From the NCBI GenBank assembly GCA_016182495.1, contig JACPGK010000022.1, forward strand, positions 11,092 through 75,091: a DNA stretch of 64,000 nucleotides, in the 5' to 3' direction. The notes beneath the pieces were generated by a model, which saw nothing but the letters and a program-made list of their open reading frames with translations, did no database searches and was not told the origin of the DNA. The translations under genes and the position numbers were made by a program. The stretch is from Candidatus Kerfeldbacteria bacterium (lineage in GTDB: Bacteria; Patescibacteriota; Patescibacteriia; UBA9570). This document shows, piece after piece, positions 35,533 to 55,714 of this stretch; within the stretch, counting starts at the first letter, position 1; every line of letters starts with the position of its first letter.

Positions 35533-36434
35533 AATTATATAATATTTTAGGCACGCGGTACTGGTGGTATGCTATCTCCACTAGTCTGATTATTGTCAGT
35601 TTGGTGATGTATGGCCTGTATGGTTTTCGTTTAGGGATCGATTTTACCGGTGGTTCATTAATACAAGTGCACTATCAAACTAGCGTCCCTAACCCCAGTA
35701 CTATTAATGAACAACTTCAGCCAGTTAATTTAGGCGATACCATCATTCAACCAGCTGGTGATAACACCATGATCATTCGCAGTCGATTTTTAAACGATGA
35801 TGAACGACAAGCAGTACTGGCTGCTCTCGGACCCGATGTAGTGGAAGATAGTTTTGAATCGGTTGGCCCGACTGTGGGAGAAGAGCTTCAACAAAAAGCC
35901 ATTCAGGCTATCGTACTCGTTATCCTAGCCATTGTTATTTATATTACCTGGGCTTTTCGTAGTGTGGCCAAAGGTCCGGTACCATCATGGGCCTATGGTT
36001 TATCAACGATCATAGCTTTAGCACACGATGTTATTATCACAGTAGGTGTATTTGTAGTGTTGGGGCATTGGTATGGTGTTGAACTGAATGCCATGTTTAT
36101 TACTGCTTTGCTCACCATTCTTGGTTTTTCAGTGCATGATACCATCGTGGTATTCGATCGCATTCGTGAAGGTTTACGGCGTAGTGCTCAACGCACCTTT
36201 AGCGGTGTGATTAATGAAAGTATTAATTTCACTTTAATGCGTTCTCTTAATACTTCAACCACCGCCTTGATTGTATTAGCCGTACTGTTTTTATTTGGAG
36301 GGGAATCAACCCGATGGTTTGTGTTTGCTTTACTTATAGGCATTATTGTTGGAACGTACTCTTCTATTTTTATTGCCAGTCCTACACTATTACTGTGGCA
36401 GAAATTTTTACGCGGTAAAAAAGGGTCAATTTAA
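35505..36434 (+). CDS. secF: Protein translocase subunit SecF
   Basis: GIDFTGGS is followed by six TM helices. Overlaps the secD 3' end, so the start is uncertain. Confidence 0.85.
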   Translation: MVRSETTEIKLYNILGTRYWWYAISTSLIIVSLVMYGLYGFRLGIDFTGGSLIQVHYQTSVPNPSTINEQLQPVNLGDTIIQPAGDNTMIIRSRFLNDDERQAVLAALGPDVVEDSFESVGPTVGEELQQKAIQAIVLVILAIVIYITWAFRSVAKGPVPSWAYGLSTIIALAHDVIITVGVFVVLGHWYGVELNAMFITALLTILGFSVHDTIVVFDRIREGLRRSAQRTFSGVINESINFTLMRSLNTSTTALIVLAVLFLFGGESTRWFVFALLIGIIVGTYSSIFIASPTLLLWQKFLRGKKGSI

Positions 36435-36483
36435 GTTTAACCATAATATTGACAGTTTGTAAAAAAAATGCTATACTTCTGGC

Positions 36484-37560: not shown

Positions 37561-37568
37561 TTTTATTT

Positions 37569-39137: not shown

Positions 39138-39138
39138 T

Positions 39139-41055
39139 ATGGCCAATGAACACATAACTGTATTTGCTGCTACCAACTTCCGTAATCAACGGCGCAATTT
39201 TGGTATTAAAGTTGATGATCGTCGCCGGCACATGTATTTGGTTGGTAAAACTGGCATGGGCAAATCAACCGTGATTGAGAATACTATTATTAATGATATT
39301 CGCGCTGGTCATGGCGTGGCCTTAGTTGACCCGCACGGTGATTTGGCGGAAAAAGTATTACGATATATTCCTACCAGTCGAGTAAATGACGTGATTTATT
39401 TTAATCCGGCTGACATTAATTATCCCGTAGCTTTTAACATTTTAGAAAGTGTTGGTCCGGAATACAAACATCTGGTGGCCTATGGTTTAGTAGGAGTATT
39501 CAAAAAAATCTGGGCTGATTCCTGGGGGCCACGCATGGAATATATTTTAACCAATACCATTTTAGCTTTGCTGGATTATCCCGGTAGTTCATTATTAGGC
39601 GTCATGCGCATGTTGGTAGATAAAGCCTATCGTAAAAAAGTAGTTTCTAAAGTGACCGATCCAGTGGTCAAAACATTTTGGACGGATGAATTCGCCAATT
39701 ATTCAGAAAAGTTTCGTTCCGAAGCCATTGCTCCAATTCAAAACAAAGTTGGACAATTTTTAGCTTCATCGATTATTCGTAATATCGTTGGTCAATCCAA
39801 AAGCACTATTGAAATGCGCGAAATCATGGATAATCAAAAAATTCTCATCATGAATTTATCAAAAGGCCGGGTAGGCGAAGAGAGTTCTGCCTTGCTTGGA
39901 GCCATGATGATTACGAAATTACAAATTGCCGCCATGAGCCGAGTAGATATTCCGGAAGAAGACCGCAAAGATTTTTATCTCTATGTTGATGAATTTCAAA
40001 ATTTTGCCACGGATAGTTTTGCTGGAATACTATCGGAAGCTCGTAAATACCGCCTCTGTTTAATTATGGCGCATCAATATTTAGAACAATTGGGAGATGT
40101 GGTGAAAGCAGCCGTGTTTGGTAACGTTGGTACTATAGTAGTGTTTCGAGTAGGTGCCACTGATGCCACAGAGATGGAGCCAGAATTCGCTCCCCAGTTT
40201 ACCGCGCAAGATTTAGTGAATTTAAAAAAATATACTTTTTGTTTACGTTTAATGATTGATGGAGTAGCCACCGAACCGTTTTCAGGCATTGGTTTACCAC
40301 CAGTCACCGGCGAAACCGATGTGTTTGATAAAATTATTCGAGTGTCGAGAGAACGCTATGCTCGCCCTCGCGCCATGGTTGAGGAGCGGATATTGCGCTG
40401 GAGTGGAGTGGAAATCACCGGTGCCATTAAACCGGCTGGTGAAGAAGCTAATACTGAAGCGAGCGATGAGGATACCACTGACGATACCACAATGGATATT
40501 CCTGCTGCTGTGGAAACTAATCAACCAGCGACTGGCTCGGTGGTAAGTTTAATACCAGAAGAACCCGACCTGCCAATAACTGTATCAACCAGTCCAGAGG
40601 TAAAGCCAATTCGTCCGAAGATTAATTTTGTTCGTTTGGAACTACCAGATGATGACATCAAGCCAGCTGTTCCGAATCCAGTAACCGTTGAAGCAGTTCA
40701 GCCCAGTACACCAGTCCCACCGTCTAAACCAATAGTTATTCCAGCTCATACTGTGTCCTTGTCAGATTTGCGCCAAGGCAATGTTGAGCGCGTTAGTTTT
40801 TCTGGCAGTCAAAACCGATCACCTCAACAACCACAGCTTCAACCACAGCCATCGACCATGGCAGAAGACCCTGTACGTAAAAAACGCCACCGCCGTCGCA
40901 ATAAAAAACCAAGCCAAGATCAATGGCAAAATACAACACCTGTACAGCCACCAATCCAACCAGTTCGTCCGCCTGCACCCAAGCCAGTGCCACCACCAGC
41001 CAACAATCAAACGATTGATCCAACCAAGGTATCATTGAATGATTTGTTTAATTAA
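39139..41055 (+). CDS. FtsK/HerA/TraD-superfamily P-loop NTPase (VirD4/TraD coupling-protein-like, TraG-D_C type) with Pro-rich C-terminal tail
   Basis: Walker A LVGKTGMGKST, VDPHGDL, Walker B-like LYVDEFQNF. The C-terminal 200 aa are low-complexity P/Q-rich. Start chosen at MANEH (39139). Confidence 0.7.
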   Translation: MANEHITVFAATNFRNQRRNFGIKVDDRRRHMYLVGKTGMGKSTVIENTIINDIRAGHGVALVDPHGDLAEKVLRYIPTSRVNDVIYFNPADINYPVAFNILESVGPEYKHLVAYGLVGVFKKIWADSWGPRMEYILTNTILALLDYPGSSLLGVMRMLVDKAYRKKVVSKVTDPVVKTFWTDEFANYSEKFRSEAIAPIQNKVGQFLASSIIRNIVGQSKSTIEMREIMDNQKILIMNLSKGRVGEESSALLGAMMITKLQIAAMSRVDIPEEDRKDFYLYVDEFQNFATDSFAGILSEARKYRLCLIMAHQYLEQLGDVVKAAVFGNVGTIVVFRVGATDATEMEPEFAPQFTAQDLVNLKKYTFCLRLMIDGVATEPFSGIGLPPVTGETDVFDKIIRVSRERYARPRAMVEERILRWSGVEITGAIKPAGEEANTEASDEDTTDDTTMDIPAAVETNQPATGSVVSLIPEEPDLPITVSTSPEVKPIRPKINFVRLELPDDDIKPAVPNPVTVEAVQPSTPVPPSKPIVIPAHTVSLSDLRQGNVERVSFSGSQNRSPQQPQLQPQPSTMAEDPVRKKRHRRRNKKPSQDQWQNTTPVQPPIQPVRPPAPKPVPPPANNQTIDPTKVSLNDLFN

Positions 41056-41058
41056 GTC

Positions 41059-42651
41059 ATGCAACGCGCTTGCGTTCAGTGTCATCAATCCTTCGCAGTG
41101 TTTGAGCGCGATCAAATATATTATCAACAGCTCGGCGTACCTACTCCAACCAAGTGTCCACAATGTCGCTTTCAATTACGCCTGTCGTTTCGGAATGAGC
41201 GTTTTTTGTATCAACGCAACTGCCAGCTTTGCCATCAACCAACGTTATCTCAATATGCAACAGATAAACCATATACAATATATTGTCGCCAGTGTTGGTG
41301 GTCTGATCAATGGGATCCGCTAGATTTTGGCCAAGTGATTGATTGGAACCGATCGTTTTTTGAACAATTCGCAGAGGTAAAACTACAGGTGCCGCGCTTG
41401 GGGTTACTCAATGATGCGGACAGTGAAAATAGTGATTTTTGCAACCGCGTAAACAAACTGAAAAATTGCTATATGATTTTTGACGCCGTTGCTAATGAGA
41501 GCTGCATTTACGGTTCCGGCATGTATGGCAATAAAGATAGTGTTGATTGTGATTATTGTGATCGCGTTGAGCTGTGTTATGACTGTAGCTATTGCACAGA
41601 CAGTTATGGTTTACGTTATAGCCGCGACAGCGTGAATTGTCGTGATAGTGCGCTATTAGTTGATTGTGTGGGCGTTTCCAATAGTTTGATGTGTGTCGGT
41701 TTACGCAATGTCCAATATTGTTATAAAAACAAACAACTAACCCAAGCCGAATTCCAAACCGTTTGGAATAATTCTAATTTTGATAAAATTGAATTTGAGC
41801 AATTTGCCCTAACAATTCCGCGGCGGTATTACCAAGGCGTTCACAATGACGATAGTAGTGGCGATCATTTAGTGAACACCCATGCCGTCCTAAATTCATT
41901 TCAAGTACGTGATAGTGAAAATTGTGGGTACTGCTATGGAGTACATCATGCTAAGGATTCCTATGACTATACGATTTGGGGTGAACAGGCTGAATTAATG
42001 TATGAAGATCATGCTTGCGGCGGGCAATGTTCAAAAATTTGGTTTGGAAACGTGGTGTGGTACGGCCATGATACTTTGTATTGCGACCATTGTTTAAACG
42101 GGGCAATTAATTGTTTTGGTTGTGTTGGTCTTAAGAATCAGCAAAATTGTATTTTAAACAAACAATACTCACCAGACGAGTATCAGCAATTAAGCCAACG
42201 TTTGATTGAGCAGATGCGTTTAACCGGAGAATATGGTCATTTTTTTCCAGCCAGCTTGAGCGATTTTTGTTATAATGAAACTATGGCCCAGGAATTTTTT
42301 CCCTTAACCAAACAACAAGCCTTGGCCAGTGGTTGGCAATGGCAAGATCATTTACCTGGTAGTTACGGCCAGGCTGATTTGGCGAAGCAGATTTATACTT
42401 GTGCAGCATGCACTAAAAATTTTCGTTTAATTGCTCCTGAATTAAAATTTTATCAGCAGCAAGGCATTCCCTTGCCAATCCGTTGCCCAGATTGTCGCCA
42501 TGCCGAGCGCATGAAATATCGTTCACCGTATCAATTATATAATCGTCAGTGTATGAAACCAGGTTGCCCGAATCATTTCCAAACAGCCTATGGTCCAGAT
42601 CGGCCGGAAATTATATATTGCGAGGACTGTTATCAGAAAGAGATGTATTAA
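41059..42651 (+). CDS. Cys-rich zinc-ribbon repeat protein, array member P1 (unknown family)
   Basis: 530 aa. N-terminal module CVQCHQSF..PTKCPQCRFQLRL, central CxxC-rich repeats (FGCVGLKNQQNCILNKQYS), the GEYGHFFPASLSDFCYNETMAQEFFPLT motif, and a C-terminal module CAACTKNFRLIAPELKFY..PIRCPDCRH. It starts 3 nt after the ATPase stop. Confidence 0.75.
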   Translation: MQRACVQCHQSFAVFERDQIYYQQLGVPTPTKCPQCRFQLRLSFRNERFLYQRNCQLCHQPTLSQYATDKPYTIYCRQCWWSDQWDPLDFGQVIDWNRSFFEQFAEVKLQVPRLGLLNDADSENSDFCNRVNKLKNCYMIFDAVANESCIYGSGMYGNKDSVDCDYCDRVELCYDCSYCTDSYGLRYSRDSVNCRDSALLVDCVGVSNSLMCVGLRNVQYCYKNKQLTQAEFQTVWNNSNFDKIEFEQFALTIPRRYYQGVHNDDSSGDHLVNTHAVLNSFQVRDSENCGYCYGVHHAKDSYDYTIWGEQAELMYEDHACGGQCSKIWFGNVVWYGHDTLYCDHCLNGAINCFGCVGLKNQQNCILNKQYSPDEYQQLSQRLIEQMRLTGEYGHFFPASLSDFCYNETMAQEFFPLTKQQALASGWQWQDHLPGSYGQADLAKQIYTCAACTKNFRLIAPELKFYQQQGIPLPIRCPDCRHAERMKYRSPYQLYNRQCMKPGCPNHFQTAYGPDRPEIIYCEDCYQKEMY

Positions 42652-42652
42652 T

Positions 42653-44092
42653 ATGATCAAGCAATGTGCCCAGTGCAGTAAAACCTTCCAGATTGATAGC
42701 AGTGATCAGGATTTTTATAAACGAATGCAGGTGCCAGTCCCAAAGCTGTGTCCGAATTGTCGTCAACAACGGCGCCTAGCTTGGCGCAATGAACGTAGTT
42801 TGTATCCAGGAACTTGCCAGCATTGTCGTAAGCCTCTGATTTCACTGTATTCACCGAACAAACCGTATACAATTTATTGTCAGGATTGTTGGTTATCTGA
42901 TCAGTGGGATCCTTTTGATTACGCTCGAGATTATAACCCCAAACAATCTTTTTTTGAGCAAGTCAGGGAATTGCAATTGGTTGTTCCGCGCATGGCTATC
43001 ACTATCCGAAATTGTGAAAACAGGATTGCATGGATTTTATCATGCCGTATCAATGTCAATTATGCTACGAAGTGATTGAATGCAGCGATTGTTACCACTG
43101 TTTATTTTCCCAGCGCTGTGCCAATTGCCGAGATTGCTATTTTTCCTATAATTGTCGTAGTTGCCATGATTGTTTTGGTTGCATCAATTTGCGTAATAAG
43201 CAATATTGTTGGTTTAATCAACAACTCACCGAGGCTGAATATAAAGGCCGATTACAAAACATAGCATGGACTCACCAAACCATTGCCGACTATCGTTTAC
43301 AATTCGCTCAATTAAAATTGACTCAACCACATCTGGCCAGTGAACAAATTCATTGCGAAGCTAGTACTGGCGATTTAATGAAAGGATGTAATCATACCGA
43401 GTATGGTTTTGATGTTTACGATCAAGAACACACATCATATGTCTTTGATGTTCGCGAGACCAAAGATAGCCATGATTTATTCATCGGCGGATTTGGTAAT
43501 GAATTAACCTATGAATGTCATAGTGCCTTGCAAACGCAACACGGTGTCAGTTTGAATGTTTGCTGGGATGGTAATTATAATCTGTATTATTGCGATCACT
43601 GTTTTACCTCACATGATTTATTTGGTTGTATTGGATTACGTCAGCAGCAGTTTTGTATTTTAAATACACAGTATAGTGCAGTTGACTATAAAAAAATTAC
43701 ACGACAAATCATCGCCGATATGACACAAACGGGGGAGTGGGGAGAATTTTTTCCAATCTCTTTATCACCATTTGCCTACAATGAAACAGTAGCGCAAGAA
43801 TATTTTTCATTAACTGAAGCAGCCATTAAGGCCAATGGGTGGCAATGGCAGTCAATGTCGAAAAAATTATCGAATTGTGCCAACTGAACTGGCATATTAT
43901 CGGCAATTTGGTGTACCAATTCCACAACTGTGTCCACAGTGCCGACACTTGGCGAGAATGAAAATGCGTAATCCGCGACAGTTGTGGCAACGTCATTGTG
44001 CCAAATGTGCTGCCATGGTTACAACAACCTATGCACCTGATCGGCCGGAAATTATATATTGTCAAGATTGTTATCAGCAGGCGGTGTATTAG
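42653..44092 (+). pseudogene. Frameshifted member P2 of the Cys-rich family (three frame segments)
   Basis: The N-terminal module (42653..43075), central part (43030..43887) and C-terminal module (43835..44092) are homologous to intact paralogs but lie in three different frames. Confidence 0.7.
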
Positions 44093-44127
44093 ATCTCATC
44101 CCCCGCCCCTCATTTTATTCGGGACAC

Positions 44128-44151
44128 CCCCTTCTCTTGCAAGAGAAGGGG
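44128..44151. repeat. Perfect 24-bp GC-rich palindrome CCCCTTCTCTTGCAAGAGAAGGGG
   Basis: Seen directly. It belongs to a three-member family in the array and has no downstream T-run. Confidence 0.6.
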
Positions 44152-44258
44152 CTATGGTAACAATAATTACTGTCTAAGACGCGTCTATTGCCAAAGGAAG
44201 GTTTCCATGCTACGCTTGTTTAGCGTCCTAGTTTGGGCGCATTTTATTTATTATAAAA

Positions 44259-44669
44259 ATGTTAGCGAAAAATAAGATACCCCCAGAGATTAATTTTCAA
44301 AAGAAATTACATTATATTTCTCGTAAATTACGCGCTCACTCAACCGCAGCAGAGAAATATTTGTGGCAATTTTTACGAAGGAAACAAATATTAGGTTTAA
44401 GGTTTTTACGGCAACATCCAATTGATCGCTTTATAGTCGATTTTGTTTGTTATCGTTTTAAGATTATTATAGAAGTAGATGGTCCAATACATTTAATTCA
44501 TCAAGGCAGAGACAAACAACGAGACGAAAGGTTACAGCAATATGGTTATGTAATATTGCGTTTTAGTAATGATCAAGTTTTACATGAAATTAATAGCGTA
44601 TTAGCTATAATTAAACAACAAACCCTCTCTTCCCTTGTAAGGGAAGAGAGCAGGAGAGATGGGATCTAA
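44259..44669 (+). CDS. DUF559 / Vsr-like endonuclease-domain protein
   Basis: The motifs IVDFVCYRFKIIIEVDGPIH...RDERLQQYGYVILRF match the restriction-endonuclease-like DUF559 fold. GC-rich palindromes lie on both sides. Confidence 0.65.
   Translation: MLAKNKIPPEINFQKKLHYISRKLRAHSTAAEKYLWQFLRRKQILGLRFLRQHPIDRFIVDFVCYRFKIIIEVDGPIHLIHQGRDKQRDERLQQYGYVILRFSNDQVLHEINSVLAIIKQQTLSSLVREESRRDGI
44625..44650. repeat. GC-rich palindrome CTCTCTTCCCTTGTAAGGGAAGAGAG
   Basis: Seen directly. It overlaps the 3' end of the DUF559 ORF. Confidence 0.55.
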
Positions 44670-44798
44670 AGTAGTATCTAAATTAAGTTTACATCTCATC
44701 TATTTTTTTTGGCTAACATTAGATTCAATATTAAGCTCAAACAATAAAAATCTAAAACACTTTGACTACGTTTGGCGGTGAAGTATACTAATGTTTAT

Positions 44799-46508
44799 AT
44801 GACAAAACAATGTAAACAGTGCAGCAAGACATTTCAAATTAGTAGTGATGATCAAACGTTTTATCAAAAAATATCAGTGCCTGAACCAACTTTATGTCCT
44901 GATTGTCGATCACAACGGCGGTTAGTGTGGCGCAATGAACGTAGTTTATACTCCCGACAATGTGATTTGTGTCATAAACCTATCATCTCACTCTACCGTG
45001 CTAACAGCCCTTACACAGTGTACTGTTATGCTTGTTGGTATTCTGATCAATGGAATGGATCCGACTACGCTCGCGAGATCGATTGGCAGAGATCGTTTTT
45101 TGATCAGTTTAAAGAATTACAGTTACGGGTACCGCGCCTATCTGCTTTTATGGTAAACAACGAAAATTGCGAATATACCAACGGCACACTGGGTTGTAAA
45201 GATTGTTACATGATTTTTGCTAGCGATCATAATGAAAACTGTATGTATTCATACGGTATTTTTAGCAGTGTGACTACACTAGATGTATTAAGCGGAAAAA
45301 ATTGTGAATTATGTTATGACTGTATTGGTTGCACTAATTGTTTTAATGTACGGTATTCTGAAGATGCCAGTAACTGTAATACTGCTTATTTTTTGTTGGA
45401 TTGTAAAGGTTGTGGTGATTGTTTTATGTCGTATGGTTTACACAACCGTAATTATGTTTGGAAAAATGAACAATTAACAGAGGCTGAATATAAAGAACGC
45501 TTAGCCAAAACTCAACTAGGTAGCACGCAAACCATTAAACGTTTAAAAGCAGATTTTAAAGAATTAAAAAAGAAACATACTTTTAAATATTATCACGGTC
45601 AAAATAATGATAATTTTTCCGGAGATTACTTAGAGCGCTGCCATAATACCTGGCAATCATTTGAATGTTACGAGATTGATAACTGTAAATTTATTACGCA
45701 TGGCAATCAAATTAAAGATTGCTACGATGGTTATATGAACGTCGATCAGTGTGAGCTTGGTTATGAATTAGTCGGTTCGGTTGGGGCCTACAACACTAAA
45801 TTTGCTGCTGCCTGCTATACCGGCTCATATTCCTATTACATTGATTCCTGTAAACAAGTGAAAAATGTGTTTGGGTGCATTGGTTTGCAAAATCAGCAAT
45901 ATTGTATCTTGAATAAACAATATTCTGAACAAGAGTATTGTATTACGCGCGATAAATTAATTAAGCAGATGTCCGCAATCGGTGAGTATGGTGAATTTTT
46001 TCCGGTCAGCTGCTCGCCTTTTACCTATAATGAAACTGCCGCTATGGATTCATTTCCGTTAAGTCAAACCGATGTAGTCAATCGAGGTTGGAATTGGCAC
46101 ACACCACCTGATAAACAACAGCGTTTCAGCAGCTATCGTTTGCCAGATACGATTGATAAAGTGGAAGATGATGTATTGGAAAATTTTCTCACCTGCGAAC
46201 AGTGTCAAACTTTTTATAAAATTATTCCAGCAGAATTACGCTTGTATCGCGAGCACATCATCCCCGTCCCACGGCAGTGTTTTAATTGTCGCCACGCTGG
46301 CCGATTGCAACAACATACTCAACGGTCTTTATGGCAACGCCAATGTATGTGTACCCGCCCGCCAGGGCAAGCCGCAGGCGTTGCGGGCGCGGCCCAACCC
46401 GAACATGGCCATGGTGGTTTGTGTCAGAACAATTTTGAAACGGCCTATAGCACTGATAGTATTACTATCGTATACTGTGAGGATTGTTATAATAAGACTA
46501 TAGTATAA
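44799..46508 (+). CDS. Cys-rich zinc-ribbon repeat protein, array member P3
   Basis: N-terminus MTKQCKQCSKTFQISSDDQTFYQKISVPEPTLCPDCRSQRRLVWRNERSLY. It carries a GC-rich insertion (RPPGQAAGVAGAAQPEHGHGG) in the C-terminal module. The track ORF uses TTG 44772. Confidence 0.75.
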   Translation: MTKQCKQCSKTFQISSDDQTFYQKISVPEPTLCPDCRSQRRLVWRNERSLYSRQCDLCHKPIISLYRANSPYTVYCYACWYSDQWNGSDYAREIDWQRSFFDQFKELQLRVPRLSAFMVNNENCEYTNGTLGCKDCYMIFASDHNENCMYSYGIFSSVTTLDVLSGKNCELCYDCIGCTNCFNVRYSEDASNCNTAYFLLDCKGCGDCFMSYGLHNRNYVWKNEQLTEAEYKERLAKTQLGSTQTIKRLKADFKELKKKHTFKYYHGQNNDNFSGDYLERCHNTWQSFECYEIDNCKFITHGNQIKDCYDGYMNVDQCELGYELVGSVGAYNTKFAAACYTGSYSYYIDSCKQVKNVFGCIGLQNQQYCILNKQYSEQEYCITRDKLIKQMSAIGEYGEFFPVSCSPFTYNETAAMDSFPLSQTDVVNRGWNWHTPPDKQQRFSSYRLPDTIDKVEDDVLENFLTCEQCQTFYKIIPAELRLYREHIIPVPRQCFNCRHAGRLQQHTQRSLWQRQCMCTRPPGQAAGVAGAAQPEHGHGGLCQNNFETAYSTDSITIVYCEDCYNKTIV

Positions 46509-46531
46509 TTTGCAATGATCAATTTAACTCT

Positions 46532-48112
46532 ATGTCTATTTGTCAAACCTGCCAAACCAATTTTACCATCACCAGTAATGATCAGCTATTTTATGACAAA
46601 GTAAAAGCACCGTTACCAGTACAATGTCCGCAATGCCGCTTGCAGAAACGCTTAGCGTATCGTAATGAACGCAGCTTGTTTAGCAGCATTTGCGGTTTGT
46701 GTCATAAAAATATTTTGTCATTATATAATCCAGCTGATCAGTTCACCGTGTATTGCAACGATTGTTGGTGGTCAGATAAATGGGAACCAACCAATTATGG
46801 CCGCGCCATTGATTGGTCGCGTTCCCTGATTGAGCAGTGGAATGAAGTACGCCGAGCGGTACCGCGTTTAGCTTTGGTGAGCTTGAATAGTGAAAACTCT
46901 GATTACACGAACATGTCATCGGATAATAAAAATTGTTATTTATTATTCGCGGCCGAAAATAATGAAAATTGTTCCTATGGTAAATTAGTGCAAAAATGCA
47001 AGGATTGTTTCGATTGTAGTTTTATTTACGATTCTGAATTGTGTTACGGCTGTGTGAATATTCGTAATTGTTATCACAGTATTTATTTGCAAGATTGTCA
47101 GGATTCGCGGGATTGCGGTTTTTCGATTGGTTTGCGCGGTTGCAGTAATGTTTGGTTCAGTGCAAATTTGCACAATAAAGAATATTATATTGCTAATCAG
47201 TCGGTGCCACCAGCTGAATTCCAGCAACGGGTGCAAGTTTTAACAGCTGATGCCGTCGCGTTAAAAAAAAGTTATCAAACTTGGCGAGAATTAAATAAAG
47301 ACAGGATTGTAAAATATGCTCACAACATTAAAAGTGACGGCTGTACCGGCGATAGTTTAACCGACTGTAAACGTATCTATGACAGTTTTGATGTTACCGG
47401 CGGTCAGGACTGTGCGTATATGACCGATGCCTTAGAGTCGCGAGATTGTTATGATGCATCGTTTATTTATTATAAGCCAGAATTAGTGTACGATAGTTTG
47501 AGTATGTTGCAGTGTTATAATGTGCAATATTCCGTGTTTACGTTTTATACATCAGACAGCCAGTATTGCGATCAAGTGCACAATTCAAAAAATATCATGT
47601 TGTCATCCTGTTTACGTAATAAACAATTTGTAATTCTAAATAAACAATACAGCCAAGCAGAATATGAAGTCCTGCTGCCAAAAGTGATTGCCGCCATGAC
47701 TACAGTAAGTGATTATGGTCAACTACCACCAGCTGAACATAGTTTATTTGCCTACAATGATACTGTAGCCCAAGAATATTTTCCGTTAACCAAACAACAA
47801 GCACTGGCGGCTGGGTATCGTTGGAATAATGCCGCGGATGAACGAATACACAAACCATTTAAGCTTACTCAATCAGAATCAGTTTTTTATCAAACCATGA
47901 ATTTACCAGAACCAACTGAACATCCTGAATTACGTCATCGGGCGCGCATGGCTTTACGCAATCCTCGTCAGTTGTGGCAACGACCATGCCAGTGTACCCA
48001 AACAAATCATAATCATGCTACTACTTGCCCAGAAGTGTTTTTAACTAGTTATAGTACTGATCGTCCTGAACAGGTGTATTGTGAGCGGTGTTATCAACAA
48101 ACCGTCATTTAA
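46532..48112 (+). CDS. Cys-rich zinc-ribbon repeat protein, array member P4 (C-terminal ribbon cysteines lost)
   Basis: The N-terminal module is intact. In the C-terminal module the CxxC..CPxC positions are replaced (HKPFKLTQSESVFY..PEPTEHPELRHRAR). Confidence 0.72.
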   Translation: MSICQTCQTNFTITSNDQLFYDKVKAPLPVQCPQCRLQKRLAYRNERSLFSSICGLCHKNILSLYNPADQFTVYCNDCWWSDKWEPTNYGRAIDWSRSLIEQWNEVRRAVPRLALVSLNSENSDYTNMSSDNKNCYLLFAAENNENCSYGKLVQKCKDCFDCSFIYDSELCYGCVNIRNCYHSIYLQDCQDSRDCGFSIGLRGCSNVWFSANLHNKEYYIANQSVPPAEFQQRVQVLTADAVALKKSYQTWRELNKDRIVKYAHNIKSDGCTGDSLTDCKRIYDSFDVTGGQDCAYMTDALESRDCYDASFIYYKPELVYDSLSMLQCYNVQYSVFTFYTSDSQYCDQVHNSKNIMLSSCLRNKQFVILNKQYSQAEYEVLLPKVIAAMTTVSDYGQLPPAEHSLFAYNDTVAQEYFPLTKQQALAAGYRWNNAADERIHKPFKLTQSESVFYQTMNLPEPTEHPELRHRARMALRNPRQLWQRPCQCTQTNHNHATTCPEVFLTSYSTDRPEQVYCERCYQQTVI

Positions 48113-48239
48113 TTTTCAAAGCCCACCTTAGAGGCTGATCATTACTTTGTAGTATAAATCAGGTTGACATCTTTGCATTTTTTTATTACCTTACCTTAGC
48201 CTAAATAATAACTTTTCAACAGTAAAAATATAAGGTCGT

Positions 48240-49052
48240 TTGACCACGGTACGCAATACACTTATGCTTACTACGAAATTAAAGAAAGATCTTTTACAAC
48301 TTGGTTTAAGTGACAACGAGATTAAATTCTATGTGGCTGGTTTAGAACTGGGCTTAGCCACTGTCCCACAAATTGCCCAGCGTGCTGGTTTATCACGCAT
48401 GAGCGGTTACAATATTTATAAAAGTTTGAATCAGCAAGGCTTAGCCGAAATGGACGTGCGCAATTACGGCCAAAAATGCAAAGTCGCCAAACCGGCAAAA
48501 TTATTGACGCTGTATGAGCAAAAAACCCGCCAACTTGATAAACTGGCTACTGACTTGCCGAATTTAATTGGAGAGCTCAATGTGCTGTATGCTAGTGTGC
48601 CGGAAGATTTAGAGATTCATTATTATCGCAGCAAAGATGCCATTATGAAAGTGTGGGATGAAGCACTCACCAACACTAAGAAAGGCGATGATATTTTGAC
48701 GATTGCAGCAGTTGATTTTGCGCCCACGCTCGGTGCACATTTTGTTGAGTATATAGAAGAATTAGCGTTACGCTGTCAAGAAAAAGGCATTCATCATAAG
48801 TTGATTCTTGAACAAACCGGTTCTTATTCCTATGATCGTAAACTATTGCAAAAAATATTTCCAAAATCAATCATGATGAAGTTAGGGGCGACGGTTGAAC
48901 AGATGGTCTATGCTGATTACGCCGCTTTCATTTTTCCCGGCAAAGAATTATTCGCTATCACTATTCATAGCAAAGAATTAGCCAATCACTTTTCAAGAAT
49001 ATTTTATACCCTGTGGAATACGGTACATGCAACGACAATGCGTACAATGTAG
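48240..49052 (+). CDS. TrmB-family HTH transcriptional regulator
   Basis: The N-terminal winged helix LGLSDNEIKFYVAGLELGLATVPQIAQRAGLSRMSGYNIYKSLNQQGLAE and a C-terminal TrmB-like domain. TTG start. Overlaps the P5 start by 26 nt. Confidence 0.6.
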   Translation: MTTVRNTLMLTTKLKKDLLQLGLSDNEIKFYVAGLELGLATVPQIAQRAGLSRMSGYNIYKSLNQQGLAEMDVRNYGQKCKVAKPAKLLTLYEQKTRQLDKLATDLPNLIGELNVLYASVPEDLEIHYYRSKDAIMKVWDEALTNTKKGDDILTIAAVDFAPTLGAHFVEYIEELALRCQEKGIHHKLILEQTGSYSYDRKLLQKIFPKSIMMKLGATVEQMVYADYAAFIFPGKELFAITIHSKELANHFSRIFYTLWNTVHATTMRTM

Positions 49053-50688
49053 CAAAACGTTTCGGATCGAAGATCAAGATCTTGAGTTTTATGAAAAAAT
49101 ATCTGTACCACCACCCACGTTATGTCCGGATTGTCGCCAGCAACGCCGCTTAGCTTGGCGCAATGAGCGCAACTTATATGAGCGAACATGTAGTCTATGT
49201 CACCAAACTATTATTTCAATGTATCGGCCAGACACACCGTACACTATCTATTGCCAACCGTGCTGGTGGAGTGATCGTTGGGAATCCACCGATTACGCTC
49301 AAGCATATAATCCTCAAGGTAGTTTTTTTGAACAATTTTCTGAATTACAACGTCAGGTACCACGAGTTGCCTTGGCAAATAATAATTCCGAAAATTCACC
49401 CTATTGTAATTTTGGAGATGGTAACAAAAATTGCTATTTAGTCACCAGTTGTAATTACAATGAAGATTGTTTTTATGGTTTTTGGATGGTCAACAATAGT
49501 GATTGTGGAGATTTAGCCTATGCCATGGATAATCGGATGTGTTATGAACTAGTGGATTGCAATAACTGCAATCAAGTACGTTACAGTCAGGATTGTCGCG
49601 ATTGTAATGAAGCTTGGTTATTGTATGACTGTGCTGGCTGTTCGAATTGTTTTGGTTGTACCAATTTACGGATGAAACAATATTATATTTTTAATAAACC
49701 GTATGCGCCGGATGCATATACTAAGCTCGTACAACAGTACACTCAAGATCGAGCTCATTTCAATGAAGCGCTTAAGCAATTTTCTGATTTAAAGAAAAAA
49801 TCAATTCAAAAATATACCAAAGGTACTAATAATAGTAACGTTACCGGCGGTGGTATTAGAAATTCGCATAATGCTAAATACTGTTTTGAAGTGGTTGAAG
49901 TAGTTGATAGCGCCTATGTCTTCGATGGTTTGCGCGCTAAAGATTGCTATGATTTAGCTTTTTTTGATGAAACAGAATTATGCTATGAATGCCACAGCGT
50001 GATTGGTTATAACATGCAGTTTAGTACCATGTGTCGGACATCACCTGATACGCAATATTCTGATAGCTGTCATAATTGCAAAAATGTATTCGGTTGCGTT
50101 GGCTTGCGTAATAAACAATTTCATATTTTGAATAAAGCGTATTCTAAATCAGCCTATCAAAAATTACGTGCCAGTATTATTAATGATATGACAATAGCTG
50201 GTGAGTATGGTGAATTTTTCCCAGTCAACTACTCTTTCTTTAGTTATAATGAAACACTAGCACAAGATTTTTATCCATTAACAAAAAAGCATGCCGCGGT
50301 ATTCGGATGGAACTGGTTTGATGCACTTACCAAAGTCATCACCGAACCTATTAGTGTAGTTCCAGATGATATTAGGCTCGTGTCTGATGATGTTGTTCAA
50401 GCAGTGTTTACTTGTAAGCAATGTCAACGACGTTTTAAAATTATTCCACAGGAGTTATCACTCTATCGCCGCTTAGGTGTACAATTACCGCAATATTGTT
50501 TTGTTTGTCGGCAACAACAGCGTGAGCAACTGCGTAATCCGTGGAAATTATTCAGGCGTCAATGTATGTGCACGCAGACCAGCCATGGTCATCAAGGGCG
50601 CTGTGTAACCGAATTTGAAACCAACTATGCACCATCGAGTACAGCCATTATTTATTGTGAGCATTGTTACCAAAAAGAGATATTTTAA
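49027..50688 (+). CDS. Cys-rich zinc-ribbon repeat protein, array member P5
   Basis: 553 aa with about 45 Cys. It has both terminal modules and both central CxxC blocks. Confidence 0.78.
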   Translation: MQRQCVQCSKTFRIEDQDLEFYEKISVPPPTLCPDCRQQRRLAWRNERNLYERTCSLCHQTIISMYRPDTPYTIYCQPCWWSDRWESTDYAQAYNPQGSFFEQFSELQRQVPRVALANNNSENSPYCNFGDGNKNCYLVTSCNYNEDCFYGFWMVNNSDCGDLAYAMDNRMCYELVDCNNCNQVRYSQDCRDCNEAWLLYDCAGCSNCFGCTNLRMKQYYIFNKPYAPDAYTKLVQQYTQDRAHFNEALKQFSDLKKKSIQKYTKGTNNSNVTGGGIRNSHNAKYCFEVVEVVDSAYVFDGLRAKDCYDLAFFDETELCYECHSVIGYNMQFSTMCRTSPDTQYSDSCHNCKNVFGCVGLRNKQFHILNKAYSKSAYQKLRASIINDMTIAGEYGEFFPVNYSFFSYNETLAQDFYPLTKKHAAVFGWNWFDALTKVITEPISVVPDDIRLVSDDVVQAVFTCKQCQRRFKIIPQELSLYRRLGVQLPQYCFVCRQQQREQLRNPWKLFRRQCMCTQTSHGHQGRCVTEFETNYAPSSTAIIYCEHCYQKEIF

Positions 50689-50697
50689 TTTAGATTC

Positions 50698-50719
50698 CTC
50701 CCCAACCCCTCCCTTGCAA
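50698..50719. repeat. Perfect 22-bp GC-rich palindrome CCCCTCCCTTGCAAGGGAGGGG
   Basis: Seen directly, 10 nt after the P5 stop. Confidence 0.6.
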
Positions 50720-50748
50720 GGGAGGGGCGAAGGGGAGAGATCAAAAGT

Positions 50749-52425
50749 ATGACCAAGCAATGCGTCCTCTGTAGTAAAACCTTCGTCATCGAACCAGATG
50801 ATCAGGTGTTTTACGATAAAATTCAAGTACCAGCGCCAAAACTGTGCCCAGATTGTCGATTACAGCGTAGATTAGCGTGGCGGAACGAGCGCAGTTTATA
50901 TCTCCGGCAGTGCGATTTGTGTCATAAAAACATCTTGGCATTATATCCAACCAATTCTCCTTACACCGTATATTGTCACGATTGTTATTGGGGAGATCAT
51001 TGGTCGAGCTTCGATTATGGTCGAGCGATTGATTGGTCACGGCCGTTTTTTGATCAATTTGTTGAGCTCTATAGCAGTGCACCGCATGCGGCTGCTTACA
51101 ATGATAATCCAGAAAATAGTGATTACGTTAATTATTGTTATCAAGCGAAAAATGATTATTTAGTGTTTGGTTCAAATTTTACGGAGAATTGTTACTATTG
51201 TTATCATTTAGATAGTTGTAATCAGTGTGTTGATTGTTTAAACTCGGACCACTTGGAATTATGTAGCAGTTGTGTGGATTGTTCACACTGTTATAACACG
51301 CATTATGCACAGGAATGTCATAATATGCGTGATAGTTATTTCTGTTTTGATTGCCGTACTAGTGCTGATTGTTTTGGCTCAACTGGCTTGCGGAATAAAC
51401 AATATGTCTTGTTTAATAAACAACTGGATGCGACTACCTATCATAAACAATTAGAATACTATTTAGCAAAAAATTCGTCAGAACAATTAGCTGATCTGGC
51501 GAGGCAGTTACGCTATAAAGTACCACAGCGCCCGGCCATGATTACCAAATGTGAACAGTCATCCGGTGATCATTTACAAAATTGTTCTAACGCTCAATAT
51601 TGTTTTGATTCTGCTGAACTCACCAATTGTAAATATATTATTCATTGTACCCCCAAAGCGTTTGATTCAATGGATGTGTATGGTGGCGGCGTGAATATTG
51701 AACGTTGTTATGAATTTTTGACTGGCTATGGTCAGAATTTACGTTTTAGTATGCTGTGCTGGAAATCTGTATCAAACTTGGATTATTGTATGTTGACGAA
51801 TTTTGCTCATGATTGTTTTGGCTGTTTCTCTTTGAGAAACGGACAATATTTTATTTTAAATACAGCCTATAACCAGTCAGATTATCAAAAATTACGTCAG
51901 CGTTTAATTAAACATATGCAGAATACAGGTGAATATGGTGAATTTTTTCCAATTGATCGATCAATCTTTGCTTATAATGAAACTGCGGCACAATTAGATT
52001 TTCCATTATCGTCCAAAGATGTGATCGCACAGCAGTGGTCATGGACTGAAGCTGTTGCTATGATCACAGGTCAACAAACAGCCGACATTACGTCATATCC
52101 ACAACTCGCTAGGCAAACCTCAGCTGGTTTGGCTGGAGAAATTTTTCAATGTCAGCAATGTCAACGTAATTACAAAATAATTTCTCAAGAGTTGGATTTC
52201 TATAAAAAGCAAAATGTATTTTTACCGCGGCAATGCTCTAATTGTCGATTTCATAATTTATATAAACTGAGATCGGGTTATCACATTTGGCAGCGTCAGT
52301 GCATGTGCACACAGACCGGCCATGGCCATCATGGTTTGTGCATGACTAAATTTGAAACTACCTACTCCCCGAATCGTAAAGAAATAGTGTATTGTGAAAG
52401 TTGTTACCAAAAAGAGATTTATTAA
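50749..52425 (+). CDS. Cys-rich zinc-ribbon repeat protein, array member P6
   Basis: 558 aa. Its C-terminus YCESCYQKEIY and the downstream junction TAATATG are nearly identical to the P1/P2 junction. Confidence 0.78.
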   Translation: MTKQCVLCSKTFVIEPDDQVFYDKIQVPAPKLCPDCRLQRRLAWRNERSLYLRQCDLCHKNILALYPTNSPYTVYCHDCYWGDHWSSFDYGRAIDWSRPFFDQFVELYSSAPHAAAYNDNPENSDYVNYCYQAKNDYLVFGSNFTENCYYCYHLDSCNQCVDCLNSDHLELCSSCVDCSHCYNTHYAQECHNMRDSYFCFDCRTSADCFGSTGLRNKQYVLFNKQLDATTYHKQLEYYLAKNSSEQLADLARQLRYKVPQRPAMITKCEQSSGDHLQNCSNAQYCFDSAELTNCKYIIHCTPKAFDSMDVYGGGVNIERCYEFLTGYGQNLRFSMLCWKSVSNLDYCMLTNFAHDCFGCFSLRNGQYFILNTAYNQSDYQKLRQRLIKHMQNTGEYGEFFPIDRSIFAYNETAAQLDFPLSSKDVIAQQWSWTEAVAMITGQQTADITSYPQLARQTSAGLAGEIFQCQQCQRNYKIISQELDFYKKQNVFLPRQCSNCRFHNLYKLRSGYHIWQRQCMCTQTGHGHHGLCMTKFETTYSPNRKEIVYCESCYQKEIY

Positions 52426-52426
52426 T

Positions 52427-54106
52427 ATGACCAAGCAATGTACCCAGTGCAGTAAAACCTTCCACATTGATAGCAGTGATCAAGCCTTTTATGATCGCAT
52501 CAATGTTCCAGCACCAACCTTTTGTCCAAGTTGTCGATTACAGCGACGGTTATCATTTCGAGTTGAACGTAATATTTATCAGCGCACGTGTGACTTAACC
52601 GGCAAACCAATATTATCGGTTTACAATACTACTCGGCCATATCCGGTGTACGATATCGCTGCTTGGTGGACCGATCGCTGGTCACCTTTAACATACGGGC
52701 GAGATTTTGATTTTAAGCGGCTTTTCTTTGATCAATTTTCCGAATTACAAGTGGTGGTGCCCCGTCTGGCTTTGATTCAACAGCAGCCGATGGAAAATAG
52801 TGCCTACTGTAATGCCGCCAGTCGTAATAAAAATTGCTATTTGGTATTTTCCACCAATCAATGCGAAGATTGCTACTATGGCTCGTGGGTTAACAGTTCC
52901 AAAAATTGTGTCGATAATTATAGTATACTGCGCTGTGAATTATGTTATCAGTGCATTGATTGCAAAGATTGTTACCACTGTTGGTATGCTCAAGATAGTC
53001 GCAATTGTACAGACAGTTATTTCATTAAAAGTTGCATCGGCTGCCGCAATATCGCATTTTGTACAAATTTAGTCAACGCTGAATATTGTTTGTTCAACCA
53101 AGCGGTGACTAAACAGGTATTTGAAGAATTTGTGCAGCAATTGCGTGCCGCTACCTCTGAACAGTGGAATATATATCAACAACAGTATATGGACTTGCGT
53201 AAGAAAATGTTCATGCGTTACTACCAAGGAGTGAATAATGAAGCCAGCACCGGTCACCACATTAATAATTGTAAAAATTGTCGCGATTGTTTTTTAGTTG
53301 ATGCTTCTGAAAATATTCGCTATGGTGTCCATTTAGAATTTGTCAAAGATGCCATGGACTATAGTTACTGGGGCCAACAAGCTGAACAATTGTATGAAGT
53401 ACAAGCTTCTGGCTATAACATTACCAATCTAAAATTTTGCAATTTATGTTGGTCGGGCTGTGAAAATTTGGAATACTGCGATCATTCATTTTCATCCAAA
53501 AACTGTTTTGGCTGTGTGGGCTTAAAGAAAAATGAATATTGCATTTTAAACAAACAATATACAGCCACAGAATACGAACGATTGGTAGATAAAATAAAGC
53601 AGTACATGCGTACCACTAAGGAATATGGTGAATTTTTTCCGATGCAGTTAAGCCCGTTTGATTATAATGAAACCTTAGCCCAAGAGTTTTTTCCACTCAC
53701 AGAAACAGATGTACAGCAACGTGGCTGGCGCTGGAAAAATAAAGATCAAACTGATTATCAAGCGCAAACATATCAGCTACCAGATCGAATTGAACAGGTC
53801 AATGATGATATTTTGCAAGCAACGCTAGCTTGCCGACAATGTACTAAGAATTATCGCATTGTGGCGCAGGAACTGGTTTTTTATCGGCAGGAAAAATTGC
53901 TCATTCCAAGGTTGTGTCCGAATTGCCGACACTTGGATCGGCTAGCTCAACGACCAAAGTACGATACTTGGACACGGCAATGTATGTGTACGCAACCAGA
54001 GCATAATCATAATAATCGTTGTGTTAAAGAATTTGTGACACCATATTCACCGAATCAACCAGAGTTAATTTATTGCGAGGATTGCTATAAAAAGCAGGTA
54101 TATTAA
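52427..54106 (+). CDS. Cys-rich zinc-ribbon repeat protein, array member P7 (second N-terminal zinc knuckle degenerate)
   Basis: Its first ~50 codons are about 90% nt-identical to the P2 pseudogene start. It has CDLTGKPIL in place of CxLCHK and VYDIAAWW in place of YCxxCWW. Starts 1 nt after the P6 stop. Confidence 0.75.
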   Translation: MTKQCTQCSKTFHIDSSDQAFYDRINVPAPTFCPSCRLQRRLSFRVERNIYQRTCDLTGKPILSVYNTTRPYPVYDIAAWWTDRWSPLTYGRDFDFKRLFFDQFSELQVVVPRLALIQQQPMENSAYCNAASRNKNCYLVFSTNQCEDCYYGSWVNSSKNCVDNYSILRCELCYQCIDCKDCYHCWYAQDSRNCTDSYFIKSCIGCRNIAFCTNLVNAEYCLFNQAVTKQVFEEFVQQLRAATSEQWNIYQQQYMDLRKKMFMRYYQGVNNEASTGHHINNCKNCRDCFLVDASENIRYGVHLEFVKDAMDYSYWGQQAEQLYEVQASGYNITNLKFCNLCWSGCENLEYCDHSFSSKNCFGCVGLKKNEYCILNKQYTATEYERLVDKIKQYMRTTKEYGEFFPMQLSPFDYNETLAQEFFPLTETDVQQRGWRWKNKDQTDYQAQTYQLPDRIEQVNDDILQATLACRQCTKNYRIVAQELVFYRQEKLLIPRLCPNCRHLDRLAQRPKYDTWTRQCMCTQPEHNHNNRCVKEFVTPYSPNQPELIYCEDCYKKQVY

Positions 54107-54128
54107 TTTATAGTGAGTTTGTCGAACT

Positions 54129-55714
54129 ATGATTAAACAGTGTGTGCAAAGATTATCGTACCCCAACCAACTTTATGTCCGGATTGTCGGCAACAGCGCC
54201 GCTTAGCTTGGCGCAATGAGCGCAATTTATATCGCGATCAATGCGATTTATGTCACCAGGATATTATCTCGCTCTACCAGGCTGATTCACCCTATATAGT
54301 ATATTGTCAGGATTGTTGGTGGAGTGATCGTTGGGATCCCATCAGTTATGGTCGGGATTATAATCCCCAGCAGTCATTTTTTGAGCAAATGCACACGTTG
54401 CAATTACAAGTGCCTCGGTTAGCGCTGTTCAATTTGCATAGTACCAATAGCGAGTACACTAATCATGCTAGTCACAATAAAAATTGTTACATGGGAGTTG
54501 CGCTGGGCCAATGTGAGGATTGTTTATATGGTTTTTGGGTACTGCAATCGAAAAATTGTGTTGATAATTTATATTGTGAACAATGCGAATTGTGTTATGA
54601 ATGTTCTTATTGTCAAAACTGTTATCAAACCTATTGGTCACAGTATGGTCAAAATTTGCGCGATTGTTTGTTCTGCTTTGAATGCCGTGACAGCAGTAAT
54701 TGTATCGGCTGTGCCCAGTTACAACACAAACAATATTATATTTTGAACAAACCAGTCACGCCAGAAAAATTTGAGCAGGTTAAACAATTATTATTGTGTG
54801 ACCTAAGTGAGCGTCAAAAAATGATTACAGCCTGGGAAGAATTAAAACTGAAGGCACCACGTCGATTTAATCTTCAACAACAATGCGAGTCTAGTACGGG
54901 AGATGATTTATATAATTGTCATAACGCTGTACATTGTTTCAATTGTCACAATTTGGAAAATTGTAAATATATGTATGACCTGGGCAACAATAAAGATGGC
55001 ATGGATTGCTATGAGCATGGTTGGATGGTGCCGAGTGAGCTATGCTATGAAACACATGCCGGTATGGCTGGTTTCAATTTTAAATTTTGTAATATTTGCG
55101 TTGAGAGTCGTGATTTAACCTATTGCGATTTGTGTCAGCAGAATTGCGCCAATTTATTTGGTTGTGTGGCCTTACGTAAAGCCAGTTATTGTATTTTGAA
55201 TCGCCAATACAATGCTACTGATTATCAGGTATTGGTTAAAAAAATGATTAGCGACATGATTAAAACAGGGGAATATGGTGAATTTTTTCCGATGCAGTTA
55301 TCGCCCTTTGCATATAATGAATCCACTGCTCAAGAATATTTTCCGTTGCAGCGCGATCAAGTATTGGCTTCTGGTTGCCAGTGGTATGAAGATAATAGTC
55401 AATTATCCGCCGTCAATGCCCAGCCAGATGTACAGCTGTGCCAACAATGCCACAGATCATTTCGTTTAGTGGCTGCAGAACTGAAATTTTATCAAGAAAC
55501 AGGGATTCCACAACCAGCCTATTGTGCTGATTGCCGTCATCAGCGCCGTATGCAATTACGCAATCCACGCCAATTGTGGCAGCGGCAATGTATGTGCACC
55601 CAGACAGATCATAAACACTCTGGCCGTTGTACGACAGAATTTGAAACGACTTATTCGCCCGACCGAAAAGAATTAGTATATTGCCAAAAATGTTATAATA
55701 AAGCAGTGTATTAA
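54129..55714 (+). pseudogene. Array member P8 with N-terminal deletion/frameshift (possibly still expressed from GTG 54140)
   Basis: ATG 54129 encodes MIKQCVQ, then about 50 nt of the first zinc knuckle are missing and the frame shifts. The track ORF resumes at GTG 54140 (MCAKIIVPQPTLCPDCRQQRRLAWRNERNLY...). Confidence 0.6.

Follow-up and report, generated by a model that had tools for sequence, protein, structure and literature searches.

Short-tract gene conversion between bacterial paralogs is familiar from tufA and tufB in Salmonella and from the conserved 5′ and 3′ ends of babA and babB in Helicobacter pylori, and conversion among paralogs in general is well known, as are gene junctions with closely spaced stop and start codons. 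We analyzed a 64,000-nucleotide (nt) stretch of DNA, referred to below as the window, from a Candidatus Kerfeldbacteria genome (Patescibacteria, or candidate phyla radiation, CPR); it is part of a contig of a metagenome-assembled genome (MAG) obtained by short-read metagenome assembly. According to the map of open reading frames (ORFs) and their translations, positions 41059-55714 carry eight paralogous genes, P1 to P8, all on one strand. The boundary between P1 and P2 closely resembles that between P6 and P7, which a sequence-only reading of this DNA had attributed to the recent duplication of a two-gene unit. Our data indicate that the similarity very probably reflects a short, non-reciprocal gene conversion from P7 into P2, within an ancient array. 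Such an event would resemble those at tufA/tufB and babA/babB in being a non-reciprocal short patch between diverged paralogs on one chromosome, anchored in their most conserved segments, and in becoming visible as local phylogenetic incongruence.

The P7 protein is identical to one from a Candidatus Kerfeldbacteria MAG, which places the window in the Patescibacteria. The array proteins are 524-570 amino acids (aa) long, contain 6-9% cysteine (roughly 7%) and carry 8-18 CxxC motifs each. Six of the eight copies are full ORFs with their own start codons, whereas P2 and P8 are damaged by deletions. The features on which the argument turns are as follows, the prefix L denoting related loci that were fetched for comparison:

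41059-42651, forward strand: P1, intact, 530 aa; orthologs L011_1507 (65%) and L008_9998 (62%).
42649-42655, forward strand: junction 1, TAA-T-ATG, that is, P1 stop, 1-nt spacer and P2 start.
42634-42708, forward strand: recipient side of the converted tract, given at its greatest extent; informative sites cover 42661-42699, inside the first 16 P2 codons.
42653-44092, forward strand: P2, pseudogene; intact orthologs L008_11677 (76%) and L011_3098 (75%).
50749-52425, forward strand: P6, intact, 558 aa; ortholog L002_8260 (59%), itself upstream of the P7 ortholog in L002.
52423-52429, forward strand: junction 2, TAA-T-ATG, that is, P6 stop, 1-nt spacer and P7 start.
52408-52482, forward strand: donor copy of the tract, comprising the P6 3′ tip, the junction and the first 16-18 P7 codons; the P7 orthologs L005_3751 and L002_10001 have the same type of 5′ sequence.
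52427-54106, forward strand: P7, intact, 559 aa; orthologs L005_3751 (79%), L006_2128 (70%) and L002_10001 (65%).

When the array was compared with itself by blastn, the best off-diagonal match paired 42628-42718 with 52402-52492, at 90.1% identity over 91 nt, beginning 25 nt 5′ of each start codon. The same diagonal appeared in the ungapped self dot-plot as 142 nt at 78%, showing that off-diagonal similarity does extend beyond short motifs. The starting observation of two junctions about 90% identical, both reading TAATATG with a shared 1-nt stop-start spacer, was thus borne out. The native junction string reads ...CAAAAAGAGATTTATTAATATG..., and the 22-mer TATTAATATGAnCAAGCAATGT is present exactly twice in the window, at 42646 and 52420, with 0 occurrences expected in shuffles. 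Beyond the interval from -25 to +60 nt relative to the start codon, nucleotide identity does not exceed the background of about 50-55%.

The two sides of the junction contribute unequally to this match. Downstream, the best 16-codon window of P2 and P7 has 46 of 48 nt identical against a background of 55%, a level reached by none of 20000 codon-column shuffles. The 54 nt starting at the first Cys codon are 90.7% identical between P2 and P7, which ranks second among 3003 family gene pairs from more than 20 genomes; for this segment the family-wide distribution has a mean of 55.7% and a standard deviation (sd) of 8.1%, placing the P2-P7 pair about 4 sd above the mean. In addition, 16 of 17 identical degenerate residues are encoded by the same codon in P2 and P7, as compared to an array-wide rate of 0.54. 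Upstream, the last 24 nt of P1 and P6 agree at 21 positions, rank 277 among 3160 family 3′-end pairs, and P6 is matched better (22/24) by the 3′ end of P5, and by several from unrelated genomes, than by that of P1. Over the last 45-90 nt, the P1-P6 pair takes a middle rank among family 3′ ends. The excess similarity is therefore confined to the downstream gene, and the likeness of the P1 and P6 3′ ends is family background. An involvement of P1 and P6 in the event was rejected on these grounds, with a single informative site, described below, speaking in its favor.

Similarity of this kind might also arise with no recombination at all, either through purifying selection on the N-terminal zinc-finger motif combined with codon preference, or through a nucleotide or RNA signal near coupled start codons. 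Indeed, the motif C-x-Q-C-S-K-T-F and codons like AGTAAAACCTTC recur in many paralogs and genomes, and a junction in the unrelated genome L012 is nearly alike over about 46 nt (roughly 41/46, counted by eye). Against such a constraint, the P2-P7 pair stands far outside the family distribution for the segment, and the junction RNA shows no excess of structure over shuffled sequence (z of +0.35 and +0.77). A structured RNA or regulatory element at the junction was likewise discarded as a candidate, given that the window has no Rfam match and that folding energies are no better than those of shuffles. The behavior of P2's own orthologs, presented below, bears on this explanation most directly.

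For the age of the array, family genes in the related loci were annotated with a hidden Markov model and a neighbor-joining (NJ) tree of 72 complete proteins was computed. In a codon-aware alignment of the eight window genes, all 28 paralog pairs share 35-46% aa and 49-56% nt identity, and the pairs P1-P6 (39% aa) and P2-P7 (44% aa) are no closer than other array pairs. In the NJ tree, every window paralog is closer to a gene in another genome (55-79%) than to any of its array mates; P1, P2, P6 and P7 fall into four separate clades, in which the window genes group with genes of other genomes. Gene neighborhood points in the same direction. The P1-P2 adjacency is kept in L011 and L008, the P6-P7 adjacency is kept in L002, and the gene order in L011 runs P1o, P2o, two extra paralogs, DUF559, P4o, P3o, TrmB, P5o, P8o, where the suffix marks orthologs of the window genes. 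Because orthologs elsewhere are closer and the adjacencies recur, the array is ancient, and neither P1/P6 nor P2/P7 is a pair of recent duplicates; array and adjacencies alike are older than the divergence of these Patescibacteria lineages.

These data bear on the proposal that P1+P2 and P6+P7 are copies of one recently duplicated segment, with the junction as its best-kept remnant. Shared TAATATG junctions with about 90% identical flanks are what such a duplication would leave behind. However, the gene bodies of the presumed copies are no more alike than other pairs, and other genomes contain orthologs of all four genes at 59-79%. Around the start codon, identity falls to background no farther than 25 nt on the upstream and 60 nt on the downstream side, and the P1/P6 3′-end similarity is ordinary for the family. 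We consider a two-gene duplication extremely unlikely and rejected it on the basis of the identity matrix, the tree and the synteny. Accordingly, the reading of the duplicated unit as a gene pair, contradicted also by the upstream 25 nt or so of the match lying at family background, did not survive, and neither did that of a recent segmental duplication. For annotation, this means that about 90% identity across two junctions is here no sign of a young duplication, and the copies are best handled as distinct orthogroups.

Comparison of P2 with its own orthologs revealed a mosaic. Intact P2 orthologs in L008 and L011 start with M-[TE]-K-T-C-R-Q-C-Q-x-x-F-x-I-T-T-S-D-Q-D-F-Y, whereas the window P2 starts with M-I-K-Q-C-A-Q-C-S-K-T-F-Q-I-D-S-S-D-Q-D-F-Y. 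Over nt 1-48, P2 matches P7 at 45/48 positions and the P7 ortholog of L005 at 39/48, compared to 24/48 and 22/48 for its own orthologs. Over nt 49-60 the relation is reversed, with 9/12 to P7, 8/12 to L005 and 12/12 to each of the two P2 orthologs, and over nt 109-240 P2 shares 49% with P7, 54% with L005 and 75-80% with its own orthologs. Defining informative sites as those at which both P2 orthologs agree and differ from P7, we counted 18 P7-type sites up to nt 47, followed by 12 ortholog-type sites from nt 57 on, with no interleaving; the chance of such a site order is 1/C(30,12) = 1.2e-8. The 3′ breakpoint lies between 42699 and 42709, and the tract is at least 39 nt (42661-42699) and at most about 75 nt (42634-42708) long. 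The only informative site upstream is the C of the P1 CAG codon at 42634 (AAA in the orthologs, CAA in P6), and just 5′ of 42634 P1 agrees with its own orthologs. The anticipated mosaicism between N-terminal and downstream parts is thus present, with nt 1-48 of P2 siding with P7 and nt 49 onward with the P2 orthologs. Of the broader suggestion that a duplication or a gene conversion postdates the gene bodies, the conversion stands and the duplication falls, and the affected segment is about 40-75 nt long and demonstrably covers only the head of the downstream gene.

The same comparison weighs heavily against an origin by selection or signal conservation. P2's own orthologs encode a different head and share just 22-24 of 48 nt with P2 there, the informative sites switch abruptly, and P2 is now a pseudogene, making present selection on its head unlikely. 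Taken together with the family distribution and the unremarkable RNA folding, these points render an explanation by constraint very unlikely.

Conversion from P7 into P2 is also supported in its direction. The head of P7 is of the same type as in its orthologs L005_3751 and L002_10001, meaning that the donor is unchanged in type and the transfer was non-reciprocal; as the tract is of P7-orthogroup type, the direction is from P7 into P2. At two of the three P2-P7 differences inside the tract, P2 has the state of the P7 ortholog L005. Because P2 keeps the L005 state at these sites, P7 appears to have changed after the event, and the event is thus not very recent. The same two sites could be taken to indicate that P2 owes its P7-type head to homologous recombination with a different strain or species, rather than to P7 at a distance of 9.8 kb. 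However, the resident P7 is the closest known sequence (45/48 vs 39/48 for L005), later substitutions in P7 would account for the two ortholog-like states equally well, and an intragenomic donor is simpler; we therefore regard a horizontal donor as scarcely credible. As a separate observation, in the P7 orthogroup (window 52427-52680, L005_3751, L006_2128 and L002_10001) only one cysteine of the four in the second N-terminal metal site is left, C-D-L-T-G-K ... V-Y-D replacing C-x-x-C ... Y-C-x-x-C, a conserved difference from the other paralogs.

P2 differs from its intact orthologs in L008 and L011 by two frame-shifting deletions, one of 103 nt after 43023 and one of 53 nt after 43853. Both lesions and the tract recur in the Logan contig L001, an independent assembly identical to the window over 42643-53649 (11007 nt). 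This contig is relevant to the concern that a short chimeric join placed P7-type sequence at the head of P2. In favor of such an artifact, the window is a MAG contig, and L001 starts at 42643, within the shared segment. On the other hand, the two sites share no exact match longer than 22 nt, which is shorter than the k-mers typically used in assembly; at 3/48 positions the tract departs from P7, carrying the P7-ortholog state at two of them, and is therefore not a copy of P7 reads; and the output of the second assembler is identical over the 3′ breakpoint and for a further 11 kb. An assembly artifact is, in our assessment, highly improbable. Incidentally, L001 begins 10 nt before the P2 ATG, inside the converted tract, and its start point could be a graph branch caused by a population variant at the junction.

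Several points weigh against the conversion from P7 into P2 as we describe it. The 5′ end of the tract is not placeable, and its crossing into P1 hangs on one informative site. Just two P2 orthologs are available, in L008 and L011, which are sister taxa, so that the ancestral P2 head is known from one lineage; L032, the only return of a metagenome scan with the P2-type pattern, has the same sequence as L011, and a scan of genome collections yielded no close relative of the window genome. By the standards of RecA-type recombination, the homology on either side of the tract is very short, leaving the molecular route uncertain. The window derives from a short-read assembly, L001 possibly stems from the same sample and begins inside the tract at 42643, and a population polymorphism or an assembly problem at the tract is still conceivable. 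Finally, the translational coupling considered below is read from gene spacing.

Mechanistically, a patch of about 40-75 nt would have been copied from the P6-P7 boundary and the start of P7 onto the P1-P2 boundary, replacing the first 16 codons of P2 and leaving the remainder as an ordinary ortholog of Kerfeldbacteria P2-type genes. The tract may have been anchored by short conserved flanks, ...TGTTAYCARAAAGAGATnTATTAATATGA... on the upstream and AGTGATCA on the downstream side. As these presumed anchors are very short, template switching or short-patch recombination may be involved. Conversion would concentrate at gene boundaries if the terminal zinc-finger modules are the only parts that retain enough nucleotide identity.

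Related arrays contain further examples. In L002, which has an array of ten paralogs, three pairs with 42-47% aa identity share boundary-centered segments that are 86-97% identical over 155-256 nt:

L002 11638-11851 and 13379-13592: 97% over 214 nt, with -50 to +50 nt identical, including the non-coding spacer and hairpin.
L002 6468-6723 and 8144-8399: 87% over 256 nt.
L002 15068-15222 and 16740-16894: 86% over 155 nt.

As the L002 tracts truly span a gene boundary, it is plausible, though not proven, that the window tract crosses its junction as well. Blastn of the arrays found no comparable tracts in L008 or L011, which suggests that conversion events are sporadic; they are also rare, with one or two in the window array. 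The potential second case pairs P5 49105-49179 with P8 54158-54232, 89% identical over 75 nt, in the most conserved motif of the family (CPDCRQQRRLAWRNER). Here, P5 and P8 agree at 64/75 positions compared to 53/75 and 58/75 to their own orthologs, with all differences being synonymous. This segment may represent a second short conversion tract, adjoining the P8 deletion, but the evidence is not decisive. With the orthologs serving as a control, the P2 tract thus exemplifies very short gene conversion between paralogs whose nucleotide identity is only about 55%, and the window and L002 together suggest that such events cluster at gene boundaries, where conserved terminal modules meet.

The TAATATG junction itself had been read as a sign of recency. 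Among 55 junctions of consecutive family genes, 13, from 7 genomes, have the form stop-T-ATG (TAA, TGA or TAG, followed by T and ATG), and another 9 are spaced by -14 to +4 nt. The orthologous P1-P2 junction is TGA-T-ATG in L011, and in L008 it contains an inserted, hairpin-bearing spacer of 59 nt. Since stop-T-ATG occurs in seven genomes, including the L011 ortholog of the P1-P2 junction, it is an inherited trait of the family and no mark of recency. Most plausibly, the 1-nt spacing serves translational coupling of neighboring paralogs by termination-reinitiation. We make no claim for a Shine-Dalgarno role of AAAGAGAT, as most window genes lack a motif of this kind. A promoter-like TTGACT-16 nt-TATACT is located at 44762-44789, about 10 nt 5′ of the P3 ATG, and the first array gene of L005 (~3700-3750) and L002_18499 (~18450-18498) have comparable TTTGAC...TA..(A/C)T strings 5′ of them. 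This suggests that array genes uncoupled from an upstream paralog may have very short leaders or none.

The remaining features of the array and its upstream flank are listed below:

39139-41055, forward strand: VirD4/TrwB-like coupling-protein ATPase gene (Pfam TrwB_AAD_bind, TraG-D_C, DUF87; NCBIfam TraD/VirD4-like), ending 3 nt before P1.
44259-44669, forward strand: DUF559 endonuclease-like gene inserted in the array, with G+C-rich palindromes on both sides (44128-44151 and 44625-44650).
44799-46508, forward strand: P3, intact, 569 aa; ortholog L011_10001 (58%).
46532-48112, forward strand: P4, intact, 526 aa; ortholog L011_8500 (64%).
48240-49052, forward strand: TrmB-like helix-turn-helix (HTH) regulator gene within the array, immediately 5′ of P5, an order shared with L011 and L002.
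49027-50688, forward strand: P5, intact, 553 aa; ortholog L002_13486 (55%).
49105-49179, forward strand, paired with 54158-54232: possible second short conversion tract between P5 and P8, at the CPDCRQQRRLAWRNER motif.
50689-50748, forward strand: P5-P6 spacer, 60 nt, with a perfect palindrome CCCCTCCCTTGC/GCAAGGGAGGGG at 50706-50727.
54130-55714, forward strand: P8, body intact, N-terminal zinc knuckle lost; longest ORF from GTG 54140; ortholog L002_6584 (61%).

P8 retains a remnant start, ATGATTAAACAGTGTGTGCAA, followed by a frame-shifting deletion that removed the first CxxC knuckle and about 16 codons, and is either truncated at its N-terminus or dead. The TrmB-like ORF shares 26 nt with the start of P5 and probably belongs with the array, the order of TrmB followed by a paralog being conserved in L011 and L002. 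A DUF559 homolog is also found within the L011 array, where two paralogs that the window lacks separate P2 from the DUF559 gene. A single type of perfect, G+C-rich palindrome (CCCCTCCCTTGC/GCAAGGGAGGGG and relatives), often with CCTAACCCC just before it, borders the window's DUF559 gene on both sides and takes up the P5-P6 spacer (44128-44151, 44625-44650 and 50706-50727). Similar hairpins lie in inter-paralog spacers of L002, L005 and L008, at places where orthologous junctions elsewhere have the 1-nt spacer. These palindromes look like small mobile or terminator-like elements that invade junctions.

In the array proteins, Pfam recognizes only 'probable treble clef' zinc fingers, zf_Tbcl (PF13451) and zf_Tbcl_2 (PF23477), at the N- and C-termini, with homology between the modules of the two ends (33% over 57 aa, E 5e-9). 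With a gathering cut-off of 24 bits, the zf_Tbcl scores of P1 (34.7), P3 (27.1) and P8 (27.7) are above and those of P4 (23.2) and P5 (18.0) below the threshold, and Pfam gave no zf_Tbcl match in P6 and P7; in a 47-member alignment, zf_Tbcl is matched by 13 and zf_Tbcl_2 by 26 members. Read by eye, the sequences all open with a CxxC zinc knuckle, from residue 5, and lack any segment resembling a signal peptide. From the cysteine pattern, several Zn would be predicted in each chain. An AlphaFold model of P7, based on 47 sequences, reached a predicted local distance difference test score (pLDDT) of 87.6 and a predicted template modeling score (pTM) of 0.88. In it, the terminal fingers enclose two stretches of many short strands (about 115-225 and 262-365), with helices after each, so the two-lobed core between the terminal modules looks repetitive and is possibly solenoid-like, which is not established. 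A Foldseek search of the model against the PDB returned nothing significant (best E 0.1, TM about 0.1), the weak matches all being left-handed beta-helix proteins or enzymes. By sequence, the core of roughly 400 aa had no relative in Pfam, NCBIfam, PADLOC or the PDB, and the literature searched contained no mention of zf_Tbcl domains. The family itself is large, with more than 7500 matches at least and 5843 cluster representatives at 50% identity in a profile search, and, as far as source names show, it is confined to Patescibacteria lineages.

P1 starts 3 nt after the VirD4/TrwB-like ATPase gene, the last member of a block directly 5′ of the array that comprises SecD, SecF, a sigma70-region-4/HARE-HTH protein, an unknown 522-aa protein and the ATPase. 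Conserved in three genomes, the block from SecD to the ATPase occupies 33829-41055 in the window, 2328-8837 in L008 and 807-7578 in L016. VirD4-like ATPase genes also adjoin arrays in L023 (two copies), L007, L025 and L020. In a survey of Patescibacteria, just 148 of 5713 VirD4-like genes were near virB4 (PMC12102498), so that orphan coupling-protein genes are common and unexplained. The link between array and ATPase is an association only. Farther upstream, 29933-31348 and 31862-33256 encode two paralogous secreted proteins with FG-GAP repeats and a C-terminal YkuD L,D-transpeptidase domain.

Junctions, boundary tracts and ATPase proximity might be combined into a single CPR-wide system, in which zinc-rich paralogs would be co-translated in fixed proportions as a hetero-oligomer or as cargo of the ATPase, with their terminal treble-clef heads being exchangeable and kept compatible by recurrent short conversion. 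We consider this scenario speculative and unlikely; it draws on synteny in three genomes, ATPase proximity in four more and the junction architecture. Irrespective of it, CPR biology gains a large uncharacterized family, organized in arrays of up to ten tightly coupled paralogs that often stand beside an orphan VirD4-like ATPase. The family may merit experimental attention, and together with its orphan ATPase link it is a more interesting lead than the conversion.

Comparison with described systems delineates what is particular to this locus. Like Neisseria pilE/pilS, Borrelia vlsE and Anaplasma msp2, the window holds a same-strand array of relatives with segmental conversion. In contrast to these systems, it lacks a single expression site with silent, promoterless cassettes, its tract covers the conserved head and not a variable region, conversions are rare, and the proteins have a zinc-finger N-terminus with nothing to suggest surface exposure. 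Cassette-type antigenic or phase variation was rejected as a candidate, considering the six full ORFs and the absence of a signal-peptide-like N-terminus. Relative to proteins described by zf_Tbcl and zf_Tbcl_2, the Pfam models match the termini of the paralogs but cover only about 45 aa at each end. As at the trpE-trpD and trpB-trpA junctions of Escherichia coli (UGAUG), stop and next start lie within a few nucleotides of each other and this arrangement recurs across orthologous junctions. Unlike UGAUG, the spacer is a fixed single T in all 13 stop-T-ATG cases of the family, and most window genes have no recognizable Shine-Dalgarno sequence, a further difference from the coupled trp junctions. 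Compared with tufA/tufB and babA/babB, finally, no antigenic or adhesin-switching phenotype is implied, the recipient is a pseudogene, the tract is very short, at about 40-75 nt, with tiny flanking homology, and the divergence between the paralogs is much greater, their nucleotide identity being about 55%.

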